DNA of 13,759 nucleotides from a virus (Duplodnaviria; Heunggongvirae; Uroviricota; Caudoviricetes). Location: the IMG/VR virus record IMGVR_UViG_2551306491_000003; one strand, given 5' to 3'. The stretch's first letter is position 1, and each line of letters starts with the position of its first letter. The position numbers and the translations under genes are program-made. Positions 1 through 13,759 of the stretch are shown here, piece by piece. Below the pieces are notes generated by a model that did no database searches, had not been told where the DNA came from, and saw only the letters and a program-made list of their open reading frames with translations.

Positions 1-261
1 GTTACTGCGGCGCAGTTCACGATTTTCACGTTCCAGCTCTTTCAGACGCTGACGTTCAGCGGTGGTGAGTCCACCATCACCACTCCCGGTATCCCGCTCA
101 TGCTGACGAACCCACACACGCAGAGTCTCTGGTGTACAGCCAATCTTTGGGGCAATGGAACAAATTGCCGCCCATTGTGAGTCATATTCGCCCTGACTTT
201 CCAGAACCATACGAACTGCTCGTTGACGGACCTCGGGGGAAAAACGTGTATTTTTAGTCAT
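1..261 (-). CDS. IS3-family transposase OrfA (helix-turn-helix DNA-binding subunit), N-terminal 87 codons; 3' end outside window
   Basis: Minus-strand translation from ATG (complement of 259..261): [87 protein letters not shown]. No stop within the window, which is why it is absent from the ORF track. Confidence 0.85.
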
Positions 262-315
262 CCTGTTTACCTCTTTCTCAGGGAGTTTAGTCTCCAGGAT
301 TCCCGGGGCGGTTCA
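1..315 (-). mobile_element. IS3-family insertion sequence, IS629/IS1203-like, left-end fragment (terminal inverted repeat plus 5' part of orfA); the element continues beyond the window start
   Basis: Reverse complement of 289..315 is tgaaccgccccgggaatcctggagact, an IS3-type terminus (TG...CA) that matches 23 of 27 positions with the inverted terminus seen at 13562..13588. orfA start codon lies 54 nt inside the end. Identification as IS629 is from memory of its sequence. Confidence 0.85.
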
Positions 316-499
316 GACTGTGATCCCGGGAGAAACACTGGCAGAGCTGAATGCTCTGTCCGGACCTGCGGTCTCTCTGGTGGTGTTTTCTTCGGGATAC
401 CGCCCACGGCGCGGGGATCGCGTTGTTTATGACGGACAACAATGGACGGTCACACGGCATGAACGCTTTAACGGTAAGCCAATGATCTTTATTGAGTAA
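316..499 (+). pseudogene. 3' remnant (60 codons, no start codon) of the phage gene immediately upstream of Z, probably a head-tail joining/head completion gene, truncated by the IS insertion
   Basis: Open frame begins exactly at the IS junction and reads TVIPGETLAELNALSGPAVSLVVFSSGYRPRRGDRVVYDGQQWTVTRHERFNGKPMIFIE, stop TAA 497..499, 11 nt before the Z start. Position matches lambda FII but I could not confirm sequence similarity to FII from memory. Confidence 0.5.
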
Positions 500-510
500 A
501 GAGGTGTGGG

Positions 511-1089
511 ATGAAGGGGCTTGAGAATGCCATCCGCAATCTGAACAGCCTTGATACCCGTATGGTGCCACAGGCCAGCGCATGGGCGATAAACCGTGTG
601 GCACAGAAAGCGGGCTCGGTTGCCACCCGGCAGGTTGCCGGGAATACCGTTGCGGGAGATAACCAGGTGAAAGGGATCCCCCTGAAACTGGTTCGTCAGC
701 GTGTCCGGGTGTTTAAAGCCAGTCCGTCAGGAAAAATGACGGCCAGGATCCGCGTTAACCGGGGCAATCTGCCCGCCATTAAGCTGGGGACAGCCCGGGT
801 CAGACTGGCCCAGCGTGGTGGAAAACTGCAGTACCGTGGCAGTGTGCTGAAGGTGGGTAAATATCTTTTCCGGGATGCGTTTATTCAGCAACTGGCGAAT
901 GGTCGCTGGCATGTGATGCGGCGTATTGATGGCAAAAATCGTTACCCCATTGATGTGGTGAAAATCCCGCTGTCCGGACCGCTGACACAGGCATTTGAAG
1001 ATGCCCGCGACCGCATCATTGCTGCGGAAATGCCGAAACAGCTGGGGTATGCACTGAAACAACAACTGAGGTTATGGCTGACCCGATGA
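511..1089 (+). CDS. Z: Minor tail protein Z (lambda gpZ-like), 192 aa
   Basis: ORF 511..1089 with RBS aaagagg 5-7 nt upstream; same length as lambda Z (192 aa) and same position in the conserved gene order. Confidence 0.85.
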   Translation: MKGLENAIRNLNSLDTRMVPQASAWAINRVAQKAGSVATRQVAGNTVAGDNQVKGIPLKLVRQRVRVFKASPSGKMTARIRVNRGNLPAIKLGTARVRLAQRGGKLQYRGSVLKVGKYLFRDAFIQQLANGRWHVMRRIDGKNRYPIDVVKIPLSGPLTQAFEDARDRIIAAEMPKQLGYALKQQLRLWLTR

Positions 1090-1487
1090 ACCGACATACA
1101 CAAATCCGCCAGGTCGTACTGGCACGCCTTCGGGAACAGTGTGGAGACAGCGCCACGTTTTTTGACGGGCTTCCGGCATTTGTTGATGCGCAGGAACTGC
1201 CTGCCGTGGCGGTGTGGCTGAGTGATGCTCAGTACACCGGAAAAATGACGGATGAAGATGACTGGCAGGCTGTTCTGCATATTGCTGTCTTCATCCGGGC
1301 ACAGGCACCGGATTCAGAGCTGGATATGTGGATGGAGAGCACCATTTTCCCGGCCCTGAATGATGTATCGGCACTTTCCGGACTCATCGACACCCTGATC
1401 CCACTCGGTTTTAACTATCAACGTGATAATGAGATGGCCACCTGGGCGATGGCGGAAATCACGTACCAGATCACGTACACGAATTAA
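1086..1487 (+). CDS. U: Tail tube terminator protein U (lambda gpU-like)
   Basis: Translation carries the lambda gpU motifs ATFFDG, PAVAV, PDSELD.WMES and ends ITYQITY. ATGA start/stop overlap with Z (atg 1086..1088, tga 1087..1089) as in lambda. An in-frame ATG at 1074 is an alternative start. Confidence 0.85.
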   Translation: MNRHTQIRQVVLARLREQCGDSATFFDGLPAFVDAQELPAVAVWLSDAQYTGKMTDEDDWQAVLHIAVFIRAQAPDSELDMWMESTIFPALNDVSALSGLIDTLIPLGFNYQRDNEMATWAMAEITYQITYTN

Positions 1488-1497
1488 GGAGGTGGTA

Positions 1498-11914: not shown

Positions 11915-11938
11915 ATTGCAGAAAATCGGGAGGTAATT

Positions 11939-12538
11939 ATGCGTAAAGTTTGTGCAGCAATTTTGTCCGCAGCCATTTGTCTGGCCGTATCCGGTGTGCC
12001 TGCATGGGCGTCTGAGCATCAGTCCACGCTGAGCGCAGGATATCTTCATGCCAGTACGGACGCTCCCGGCAGCGATGATCTGAACGGGATTAACGTGAAA
12101 TACCGTTATGAGTTTACGGACACACTGGGGCTGATTACGTCCTTCAGTTATGCCAACGCCGAAGATGAGCAAAAAACGCATTACAGCGATACCCGCTGGC
12201 ATGAGGATTACGTGCGTAACCGCTGGTTCAGCGTGATGGCAGGGCCGTCTGTGCGTGTGAATGAATGGTTCAGTGCGTATGCGATGGCGGGTGTGGCTTA
12301 CAGCCGTGTGTCGACTTTTTCCGGGGATTATTTCCGCGTAACTGACAACAAGAGGAAAACGCACGACGTGCTGACCGGAAGTGATGACGCTCGCTACAGC
12401 AACACATCTCTGGCGTGGGGGGCTGGCGTGCAGTTTAACCCGACCGAATCAGTGGCCGTTGATGTCGCTTATGAAGGCTCCGGCAGCGGTGACTGGCGCA
12501 CTGACGGTTTCATCGTGGGTGTCGGTTATAAATTTTGA
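11939..12538 (+). CDS. lom: Outer membrane beta-barrel protein Lom (Ail/Lom/PagC family), 199 aa with signal peptide
   Basis: RBS gggagg 11928..11933. N-terminal signal peptide MRKVCAAILSAAICLAVSGVPAWA. Aromatic-rich beta-strand pattern ending in terminal Phe (GVGYKF), typical of outer-membrane barrels. Sits between J and stf as lom does in lambda. Confidence 0.85.
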   Translation: MRKVCAAILSAAICLAVSGVPAWASEHQSTLSAGYLHASTDAPGSDDLNGINVKYRYEFTDTLGLITSFSYANAEDEQKTHYSDTRWHEDYVRNRWFSVMAGPSVRVNEWFSAYAMAGVAYSRVSTFSGDYFRVTDNKRKTHDVLTGSDDARYSNTSLAWGAGVQFNPTESVAVDVAYEGSGSGDWRTDGFIVGVGYKF

Positions 12539-12560
12539 TTAGTAACACAGCGTTATGACA

Positions 12561-12586
12561 GCCCGCCGGTTCAGGCGGGCTTTTTT
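12561..12586 (+). terminator. Intrinsic terminator downstream of lom
   Basis: gcccgcc-ggttca-ggcgggc (7-bp GC stem) followed by tttttt. Confidence 0.7.
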
Positions 12587-12597
12587 GTGGAGTGGGT

Positions 12598-13561
12598 ATG
12601 GCAGCAGTACAAATATCAGGCGTGCTGAAAGATGGTGCGGGAAAACCAATACAGAACTGCACCATTCAACTGAAAGCCAGACGTAACAGCACCACGGTGG
12701 TGGTGAACACGGTGGCCTCTGAAAATCCGGATGAGGCAGGGCGTTACAGCATGGACGTCGAGTATGGTCAGTACAGCGTCACTCTGTTGGTGGAGGGATT
12801 CCCGCCATCACATGCCGGGACCATCTCCGTGTATGAAGATTCTCAACCGGGTACGCTGAATGATTTTCTCGGTGCCATGACGGAGGATGATGCCCGTCCG
12901 GAGGCACTGCGTCGTTTTGAACAGATGGTGGAAGAAGCAGCGCGTCACGCAGAGGAGGCGAAGAAGAATGCCGGAGAAGCAGAGACGTCCGCGAGGAATG
13001 CCGGCATATCAGCCAGTAAGGCGGAAGCGAGCGCCGCAAATGCTGATACTTCAGCAGAGGATGCATCGGAGTCAGCCCGGCAGGCGGCAGAAAGTGCAGC
13101 CTCTGCAAAGAAGTCAGAGGAAGCGTCCTCGTCCTCAGCCTCTGAGGCCGCTCAAAAAGCCAGTGAGTCATTACAAAGTGCAACAGATGCCGAGTTGTCA
13201 AAAAAGACGGCAGAAAGTGCAGCCGGTAATGCAGCCAGGGATGCAACGACCGCAACAGAAAAAGCCCGGGAATCAGCAGAAAGCGCACAGTCAGCGGAAC
13301 AAAGCAGAATAGCGGCGGAAGACGCCGTAAACAGAATTCCCACCGTGGTGGGGCCTCCCGGACCAAAGGGGGAACCGGGTCCCGCGGGTCCTCAGGGGCC
13401 GAAGGGAGATAAAGGAGAGCGTGGAGACACCGGTCCGGCAGGGGCAACCGGTGAACGGGGACCGGGAGGAGATACAGGTCCGGCAGGTCCGCAGGGGCCG
13501 AAAGGCGACAGGGGAGAGCGGGGAGAGACCGGTCTGACAGGAAGTACAGGTCCACAGGGGC
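12598..13561 (+). CDS. stf: Side tail fibre protein Stf, N-terminal 321 codons only; interrupted by the IS insertion at 13561/13562 (effectively a pseudogene); the frame reads through into IS sequence with no stop before the window end
   Basis: RBS ggagtggg then ATG 12598. N-terminus [39 protein letters not shown] closely resembles lambda Stf. A/E/S-rich low-complexity region, then collagen-like repeats. Absent from the ORF track because the frame has no stop in the window. Confidence 0.8.
13351..13561 (+). repeat. Collagen-like Gly-X-Y triplet repeat run (about 23 triplets) within stf
   Basis: Translation [70 protein letters not shown]; underlying DNA is a degenerate 9-nt periodic repeat. 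Confidence 0.85.
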
Positions 13562-13759
13562 TGAACCGCCCCGGTTTTCCTGGAGAGTGTTTTATCTGTG
13601 AACTCAGGCTGCCAGATCATCGTTTCCGATGGAAGCATAATAAGCTTTTTCTGCTTCTGCCGGAGGAGTATGGCCCAGCCTTCCCAGCAATCGTCGATTG
13701 TTATACCAGTCCACCCACGTTAGTGTGGCCAGTTCCACTTCTGCACGGTTTTTCCAGCT
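13562..13759 (-). mobile_element. IS3-family insertion sequence, IS629/IS1203-like, right-end fragment (terminal inverted repeat plus 3' end of orfB); the element continues beyond the window end
   Basis: 13562..13588 tgaaccgccccggttttcctggagagt is the imperfect inverted partner of the terminus at 289..315. Same orientation as the fragment at 1..315. Confidence 0.85.
13604..13759 (-). CDS. IS3-family transposase OrfB (DDE integrase subunit), C-terminal 51 codons; 5' end outside window
   Basis: Minus-strand translation ...[51 protein letters not shown], stop = complement of 13604..13606. The WYNNRR motif is typical of IS3-family OrfB C-termini. Confidence 0.8.

Follow-up and report, generated by a model that had tools for sequence, protein, structure and literature searches.

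The 13 759-nt stretch of DNA analysed here (the window) is assigned, by sequence identity, position and gene cargo, to the tail genes of Sp3/CP-933K, a cryptic lambdoid prophage, in Escherichia coli O157:H7 Z1486 or an indistinguishable isolate. Its edges fall by chance inside one insertion sequence (IS) and inside another. A sequence-only reading of the window had described a 13.2-kb tail segment bracketed by two direct IS copies of the IS629/IS1203 kind, and this arrangement is indeed what is found. The two copies very probably represent separate and recent IS629-group insertions into tail genes that are native to the prophage. Such insertions are routine prophage decay in this pathogen, a matter of ordinary and already annotated IS629 biology, and the bracketed segment is not a new mobile unit.

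The Z1486 chromosome, from assembly GCF_017165255.1, is the sole match at 100% identity over all 13 759 nt, and the matching record is a closed chromosome. Positions 316–13561 are present as an unbroken, 100% identical copy in many O157 genomes. The Z1486 locus runs from terminase, portal and capsid genes through the tail genes to nleB2, nleC, nleH1-1 and nleD, and then to ybhB-bioA. This is the site and cargo of Sp3/CP-933K; NleB2 has been placed on CP-933K/Sp3, whose cargo and site are as in Z1486 (PMC7142665). The Z1486 prophage shares with Sp3 of strain Sakai and CP-933K of EDL933 the ybhB-bioA position, the four effector genes, a split portal gene, a truncated early region, tail genes in the lambda order and a collagen-like tail fibre gene of the EPclA type. 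Major tail, minor tail and host-specificity functions were scored as present in Sakai Sp3, which shows no circularisation, replication or packaging (PMC2669165); in Z1486 the lambda FII-like gene and the side tail fibre gene stf are broken in addition. Features of the window are listed in the table.

Table. Features of the window, with coordinates counted from its first nucleotide
Feature	Position	Strand	Details
IS copy 1, IRL-proximal 315 bp	1–315	-	IRL 289–315; orfA N-terminus, 87 codons, 1–261
Right-hand GAC of the IS copy 1 3-bp target-site duplication	316–318	.	left-hand GAC at L001 (Z1486 locus) 14003–14005, just outside the window
Lambda FII-like head-tail joining gene, 3′ two-thirds	317–499	+	Pfam Gifsy-2 PF13856, profile positions 47–97 only
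Tail gene Z (minor tail protein Z)	511–1089	+	PF06763, E=1.7e-75
Tail gene U (tail terminator)	1086–1487	+	PF06141, E=1.2e-60
Tail gene V (tail tube protein, C-terminal Big_2 domain)	1498–2241	+	PF16461, E=1.2e-66; PF02368
Tail assembly chaperone genes G (2302–2688), T (2697–3026)	2302–3026	+	PF06894, PF06223; RefSeq annotation
Tape measure gene H	2998–6063	+	PF06791, PF09718, PF24622
Tail tip genes M (6063–6392), L (6402–7100), K (7106–7849), I (7747–8394)	6063–8394	+	PF05939, PF05100, Prok-JAB+NlpC/P60, PF06805
Tip attachment/host specificity gene J	8455–11868	+	six gpJ domain families, among them the receptor-binding domain at the C-terminus
lom (Ail/Lom outer-membrane beta-barrel)	11939–12538	+	PF06316, E=1.8e-131
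Side tail fibre gene (stf), 5′ 321 codons	12598–13561	+	PF08400 + Collagen
Left-hand GGC of the IS copy 2 3-bp target-site duplication	13559–13561	.	right-hand GGC at L001 29872–29874
IS copy 2, IRR-proximal 198 bp	13562–13759	-	IRR 13562–13588; orfB C-terminus 13604–13759

The left fragment is the IRL/orfA end of a 1310-bp IS3-family element with its transposase on the minus strand, and the right fragment is the IRR/orfB end of another, as had been proposed. The orfA start codon of copy 1 lies at 259–261 on the minus strand, and the reading frame gives a Pfam HTH_Tnp_1 match (E=8e-13). Of the orfB of copy 2, the window holds the last 51 codons, which end in a minus-strand stop at 13604–13606; this fragment matches rve_3 weakly, and the full reading frame matches rve strongly. 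In the Z1486 locus (L001) the complete elements occupy 14006–15315 and 28562–29871. Both are 1310 bp in length, run from TGAACCGCCCCGG to CCGGGGCGGTTCA, and encode proteins of 108 and 295 aa with HTH_Tnp_1 and rve/HTH_21 domains, the orfA/orfB arrangement of the IS3 family. In each copy IRL and IRR match at 23/27 positions and have the 5′-TG...CA-3′ form; within the window, the reverse complement of 289–315 likewise agrees with 13562–13588 at 23 of 27 positions, so that the imperfect inverted repeats described earlier are confirmed. By its coordinates copy 1 has orfA and orfB overlapping by 1 nt, and the RefSeq annotation gives a programmed -1 frameshift with an ALIL pseudoknot. With its transposase on the minus strand in each case, the two copies are in direct orientation; different IS families or opposite orientations, which the sequence-only reading had named as evidence against itself, were not found. 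These ends are not chance resemblances, since more than 3,000 complete E. coli genomes contain identical or near-identical IS copies.

The elements share with IS629/IS1203 from the IS3 family in O157:H7 the length of 1310 bp, imperfect TG...CA repeats, orfA (HTH), orfB (DDE/rve), the -1 frameshift, 3-bp duplication, a preference for prophages, strain-specific sites and the co-residence of two sub-types separated by about 60 nt. There is no difference in kind, and just the insertion sites (the FII-like gene and the stf collagen repeat) are specific to Z1486 among complete genomes. In O157, prophages contain about 62% of the IS629 copies, target-site duplications are 3–4 bp, and sub-types are 55–60 nt apart (PMC3271280).

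It should be stressed that the two ends are not a matching pair, as had been supposed. Copies 1 and 2 differ at 60 of 1310 positions (95.4% identity, longest identical tract 125 bp); 18 of the differences fall in the part seen at 1–315 and five in that at 13562–13759. On their sequences they are assigned to different sub-types of IS629. Copy 2 differs by a single nt from copies in strain 180-PT54, labelled IS1203 family by RefSeq, and is classed by sequence as IS1203-type IS629, sub-type I. Copy 1 is labelled merely ‘IS3 family’ in RefSeq and is identical at 1310/1310 positions to a resident copy at Z1486 1223386–1224695 and to one in strain 9000. It is an IS629 variant, probably the sub-type III of Rump, going by the published description (about 60-nt distance and presence in O157; PMC3271280). 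What appears to be the same IS twice is therefore a pair of sub-types 4.6% apart, which is invisible from the window alone and alters the recombination behaviour to be expected.

The target sites show how the elements came to lie where they are. The left fragment ends in GATTCCCGGGGCGGTTCA followed directly by GAC, and the right one begins with TGAACCGCCCCGGTTTTCC directly after GGC. Each element has a separate 3-bp duplication at its ends, GAC/GAC for copy 1 and GGC/GGC for copy 2, as is typical of the IS3 family. Strain 9000 is uninterrupted at both sites, with a lone GAC (gatatGACtgtgatcc) and a lone GGC (cacaggGGCcaaaggg). There the FII-like gene is whole, at 276 nt, as is stf, at 438 codons; in Z1486 copy 1 splits the former after about codon 32 of 91, severing the first 32 or so codons, and copy 2 breaks the latter after codon 321 of 438, within the collagen repeat. 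The separate duplications, together with the empty sites of strain 9000, indicate two independent simple insertions and not the arrival of a single composite transposon. Among the 5,426 complete genomes searched, Z1486 gives the sole single-piece 100% match to either junction. Other high-coverage matches to the FII junction are in two pieces, i.e. an IS lies nearby at a different site, and further single-piece matches to the stf junction, at 88–89% identity, are in a paralogous tail fibre gene. IS1203 is found at different sites of the same prophage in other strains. The 30-mers CCCGGGGCGGTTCAGACTGTGATCCCGGGA and GTCCACAGGGGCTGAACCGCCCCGGTTTTC would serve as markers of the two insertions.

The insertions can be read directly from the junctions; the mechanism and order of the two events, and their presumed lack of effect on fitness, are suggested by what is known of IS3-family elements and Sp3. 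Two members of the IS629 group very probably inserted separately, each presumably by ordinary copy-out-paste-in transposition and each generating its own 3-bp duplication. The variant copy, very probably duplicated from the resident element near ypjC, entered the FII-like head-tail joining gene, mobilized either by the variant transposase or by an IS1203 transposase acting in trans; the IS1203-type copy entered the collagen-like repeat of stf. Their common orientation is very probably coincidence. The outcome is two further knock-outs in a prophage already incapable of excision, replication and packaging. The analysis found no evidence that contradicts this two-insertion explanation.

The main alternative is that the two IS function together with the tail genes as one unit, either a 15.9-kb composite transposon with Z to J and lom as cargo, or a recombination cassette that is deleted by RecA or regularly excised as a circle of about 14.5 kb. 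The classical composite transposons Tn10, Tn5 and Tn9 likewise consist of a passenger flanked by two IS copies, and in Tn9 these are in direct orientation, as here. With direct orientation the outer ends make up a legitimate IRR...IRL pair, and recombination between direct repeats is possible in principle. IS629-associated deletions are on record in O157 (PMC9943667). However, the comparison of the flanks with the distal ends, which had been suggested earlier, gives GAC to the left of copy 1 and GGC to the right of copy 2; the duplications are local and none is common to the outer ends. The inner segment is moreover collinear, at 100% identity, with its counterpart in many O157 strains whose prophage is uninterrupted, which speaks against a composite origin. 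Unlike Tn10, Tn5 and Tn9, the Z1486 arrangement has IS of different sub-types acquired in situ, cargo native to the site and one genomic context only: its junctions are confined to one locus of one genome among 5,426, with no second copy of either, and the unit is absent from 72,556 plasmids. With different sub-types, 95.4% identity and no more than 125 bp of unbroken identity, the copies are a much poorer RecA substrate than the perfect 1.3-kb repeat that had been envisaged. Divergence of this order strongly lowers RecA-mediated exchange, as is known for homeologous recombination and mismatch repair, and we know of no documented route for IS3-family circle formation spanning about 16 kb. The predicted product of an IS–IS deletion (600 bp upstream of copy 1, one IS and 600 bp downstream of copy 2) had no match with at least 80% coverage in the 5,426 genomes. 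The earlier suggestion of RecA-mediated deletion, excision or composite movement holds in theory, and deletion between the copies is a theoretical possibility only, hindered by divergence and unobserved. A functional unit of this sort is very unlikely. The more specific notion, that heterologous IS629 sub-types jointly act as a 15.9-kb composite or recombination cassette that occasionally lifts the intact Z-to-J and lom genes from a dead prophage, is highly improbable; if true, it would provide O157 with an IS-mediated route of tail-module exchange, to another lambdoid prophage or to a plasmid.

Two other readings concern the form of the molecule. The fragments correspond to IS positions 1–315 and 1113–1310 of a 1310-bp element and do not overlap, so a circular replicon of about 14.5 kb with both ends from one IS, the other form considered in the sequence-only reading, is not excludable from the window alone. 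It fails on the 100% identity of the window to the Z1486 chromosome, a closed record that holds two complete copies. At the positions that separate the copies, the left fragment has the variant allele in 18/18 cases and the right fragment the IS1203-type allele in 5/5, and the ends belong to two elements with 60 differences. No small circular plasmid of this kind is present in PLSDB (72,556 plasmids), where the best matches are phage-like tail modules of at most 96% identity that lack the junctions. The chance that such a circle exists is close to nil. Misassembly at one IS junction, by a chimeric join or a collapsed repeat, is a natural concern with some 20 IS629 copies per O157 genome (15–26 IS places per record among the O157 rows listed), a classic cause of such errors. 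Nevertheless, both elements have perfect 3-bp duplications, and on both sides of each IS the broken gene carries on exactly as it reads in strain 9000 with its empty sites, which is not the pattern of a misjoin. The record is also a closed chromosome. An artefact is extremely improbable.

The separate insertions have little importance beyond strain typing. Fingerprinting of O157 lineages already makes use of IS629 sites, and it is no new finding that O157 prophages are riddled with IS629 copies and inactivated by them. The two described here are private markers of Z1486 and illustrate the stepwise decay of a cryptic prophage. The virulence cargo of this prophage (nleB2, nleC, nleH1-1 and nleD) is not part of the bracketed segment and would outlast a deletion of that segment.

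The tail genes had been described as a complete lambdoid module. This holds for Z through J and for lom, which are intact, with Z-U-V-G-T-H-M-L-K-I-J in the lambda order and with matching protein families; it does not hold for the FII-like gene and stf, both split, or for tfa, which is found neither in the window nor behind stf. The lambda relatives mEp460 and cdtI have the same order, FII-Z-U-V-G-T-H-M-L-K-I-J-lom-stf, and are 95–96% identical at the nucleotide level over window positions 316–12950. The Z1486 module differs from theirs in that it sits in a dead prophage, has FII and stf interrupted and lacks tfa behind stf. The stf product is a collagen-like protein of the EPclA type, a homologue of Z0982/ECs0844 (PMC3368898). 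Tandem Repeats Finder, at its default score, reported no repeats in the collagen-like region. The lambda slippery site GGGAAAG is absent from the G/T junction, where it was sought; this has no bearing on the IS finding. RefSeq names the FII-like gene product ‘DNA breaking-rejoining protein’. The hybrid CDS that PGAP annotates at window positions 260–499 starts at a non-standard ATC; the same protein is not to be expected from other gene callers, which makes this CDS unsuitable for tracing the junction in draft genomes.

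The whole window has one full-length match at 100% identity in a megablast search of 5,426 complete E. coli genomes. This is in the chromosome of O157:H7 strain Z1486 (NZ_CP062749.1, 3835334-3849092, minus strand). Positions 316-13561 are 100% identical and unbroken in many further O157 genomes, and at least 80% of the window is present in about 1,775 of the genomes searched. The annotated order in Z1486 is terminase, a split portal gene, capsid genes, tail genes, nleB2, nleC, nleH1-1 and nleD, followed by ybhB-bioA. Such effector cargo and chromosomal position are those of prophage Sp3/CP-933K (PMC7142665), and the tail fibre gene is the EPclA collagen-like gene Z0982/ECs0844 (PMC3368898). 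Sp3 of the Sakai strain is without cI/cro and replication genes, its integrase and portal are disrupted, and it shows no circularisation, replication or packaging (PMC2669165). The disrupted portal scored in Sakai agrees with the two-piece portal annotation in Z1486.

The window is bounded by parts of two complete, similarly oriented insertion sequences, copy 1 within the FII-like gene and copy 2 within stf. Each has an orfA of 108 aa (HTH_Tnp_1) and an orfB of 295 aa (rve/HTH_21) that overlap by one base, and a programmed frameshift is annotated in RefSeq for the transposase. Reading both window ends bears out the earlier description of orfA and orfB pieces: the left end has the terminal sequence ...CCCGGGGCGGTTCA, the right end opens with TGAACCGCCCCGG, and the inverted repeats at the two termini match at 23 of 27 positions.

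Features of the Z1486 prophage and of related loci (L001, Z1486 locus with the window and its surroundings; L003, locus of strain 180-PT54; L006, second Z1486 locus)
Feature	Position	Strand	Remarks
Copy 1, complete	L001 14006-15315	transposase minus	1310 bp
Copy 2, complete	L001 28562-29871	transposase minus	1310 bp
IS end of copy 1	window 1-315	minus	ORF, ATG at 259-261; 87 codons, Pfam HTH_Tnp_1 match
IS end of copy 2	window 13562-13759	minus	DDE-transposase ORF, last 51 codons, stop 13604-13606; domain search on fragment and full ORF
FII-like gene (lambda), 3' part	between IS ends	plus	strong Pfam match
Z, U, V, G, T, H, M, L, K, I, J, lom	between IS ends	plus	strong Pfam match each
stf, first 321 codons, with collagen-like repeat	between IS ends	plus	strong Pfam match
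stf'::IS fusion ORF	window 12598-13759, on to L001 28797		runs past window end
Hybrid CDS WP_051045466.1	window 260-499		RefSeq
Portal gene, two pieces	L001 9955-11079 and 11201-11536		Z1486 annotation
IS1203 in tape measure gene	L003 7929-9238		180-PT54
IS1203 in stf	L003 17164-18473		180-PT54
Further IS1203	L006 37035-38248 (1242034-1243247)		Z1486, different prophage

The G/T chaperone junction (window 2660-2700) is without the GGGAAAG slippery heptamer of lambda, and the G stop is preceded by CCGGAAAAGTCCTGA. Thus any frameshift site for a G-T fusion differs from that of lambda.

Judged from their flanking sequences, copies 1 and 2 are two simple insertions, each made in place, because each IS has its own target-site duplication and both sites are single in an uninterrupted relative. 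GAC is found on both sides of copy 1 and GGC on both sides of copy 2. Strain 9000 has this prophage with the FII-like gene and stf both intact, and with a single GAC and a single GGC at the exact IS positions. The closed chromosomes of Z1486 and strain 9000 (5,516,474 vs 5,516,496) are only 22 bp apart despite two extra 1313-bp insertions in the Z1486 prophage, and losses elsewhere must therefore compensate for these, for example among other IS copies, of which one is reported in stx2a of strain 9000.

Over their 1310 bp the two copies have 60 differences (95.4% identity), with no unbroken identical run longer than 125 bp. Copy 1 is identical at 1310/1310 positions to an element interrupting a DUF6387 gene near ypjC, both in Z1486 and in strain 9000, and this element is found with 100% identity in many further O157 genomes. 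Sequence identity suggests that the element near ypjC is the likely donor of copy 1, still in place. A retained donor is expected for copy-out-paste-in transposition, by which the IS3 family moves. Copy 2 is 1 nt from copies named IS1203 family by RefSeq. IS629 occurs in O157:H7 as two sub-types, I (IS1203-like) and III, that are 55-60 nt apart (PMC3271280); the divergence of the two copies fits this picture, with sub-type names applied by analogy.

The sequence-only reading holds in that the tail module lies between two copies from one IS group in direct orientation, but it is wrong or unsupported on the circle, the composite origin and the quality of the repeats. A circle of about 14.5 kb is refuted, because the sequence is part of the chromosome and the window ends come from different elements, the left fragment having variant alleles at 18/18 copy-separating sites and the right one IS1203-type alleles at 5/5; no such plasmid is found among 72,556 plasmid records. 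Arrival as a composite transposon would give one duplication common to the outer ends; comparison of the flanking 3-bp sequences with the distal ends reveals none shared, and a composite origin is thus not supported. Exchange between the copies after insertion would have swapped their duplications. Nor do the 5,426 genomes give evidence that the unit moved later: for each junction, Z1486 alone has a single-piece match at 100%.

RecA-mediated deletion between the copies, also proposed, is possible in principle, but the repeats are not perfect. Minimal efficient processing segments and mismatch-repair anti-recombination limit exchange between diverged repeats, and a divergence of 4.6% would substantially lower it here. 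The predicted deletion product is covered by no genome among the 5,426 complete E. coli genomes. IEE-assisted IS629 excision leaves adjacent deletions of a few bases to >40 kb (PMC9943667). It is a more realistic route than two-copy RecA deletion to loss of the tail segment in O157, and one copy suffices.

Copy 1 cuts FII after about codon 32 (of 91) and copy 2 cuts stf after codon 321 (of 438); with both genes split, head-tail joining and side fibres would be lost. We infer that the prophage was already immobile before both insertions, and that the effector genes, downstream of copy 2, are untouched. The truncated stf frame stays open across the antisense strand of orfB, which gives a 399-aa fusion ORF. 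RefSeq also has a hybrid CDS ('DNA breaking-rejoining protein') that has an ATC start in the IS end and continues into the 3' fragment of FII. This CDS is probably an artefact of annotation; its older protein accession may reflect the same or a similar junction in draft genomes. Both transposases and both pseudogenes are already annotated in the Z1486 record. Events of this kind are known, the prophage is known, and the genome has been sequenced and annotated, so the double insertion is of low interest.

In sequenced O157 genomes, prophages or prophage-like elements contain about 62% of the IS629 copies, and many of the insertion sites are strain-specific (PMC3271280); IS629 is held responsible for many O157 gene-inactivation and deletion polymorphisms (PMC9943667). 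The same prophage in strain 180-PT54 has two IS1203 copies, one in the tape measure gene and one in stf, and each has its own duplication (ATA, GTG). These copies are in opposite orientations, and thus form an inversion substrate, not a deletion substrate. IS1203 is in the DUF2190 head gene of this prophage in strain NE 1169-1, and in its tape measure gene in several O157 strains.

A cluster of recent O157:H7 genomes (PNUSAE, H104-H116, and UTAK-15, H117) shows a junction of IS1203 with a paralogous, collagen-like tail fibre gene. Window 13412-13711 has a single-piece match to these genomes at 88-89% identity across the junction, which puts the IS in the tail fibre gene of another prophage, at the homologous position or very close to it. 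The collagen repeat could be a recurrent target, or recombination could have spread the insertion. IS insertion into tail fibre genes seems to have occurred repeatedly. The further IS1203 of Z1486 adjoins a truncated tail fibre C-terminal gene of a different prophage, beside a truncated IS66.
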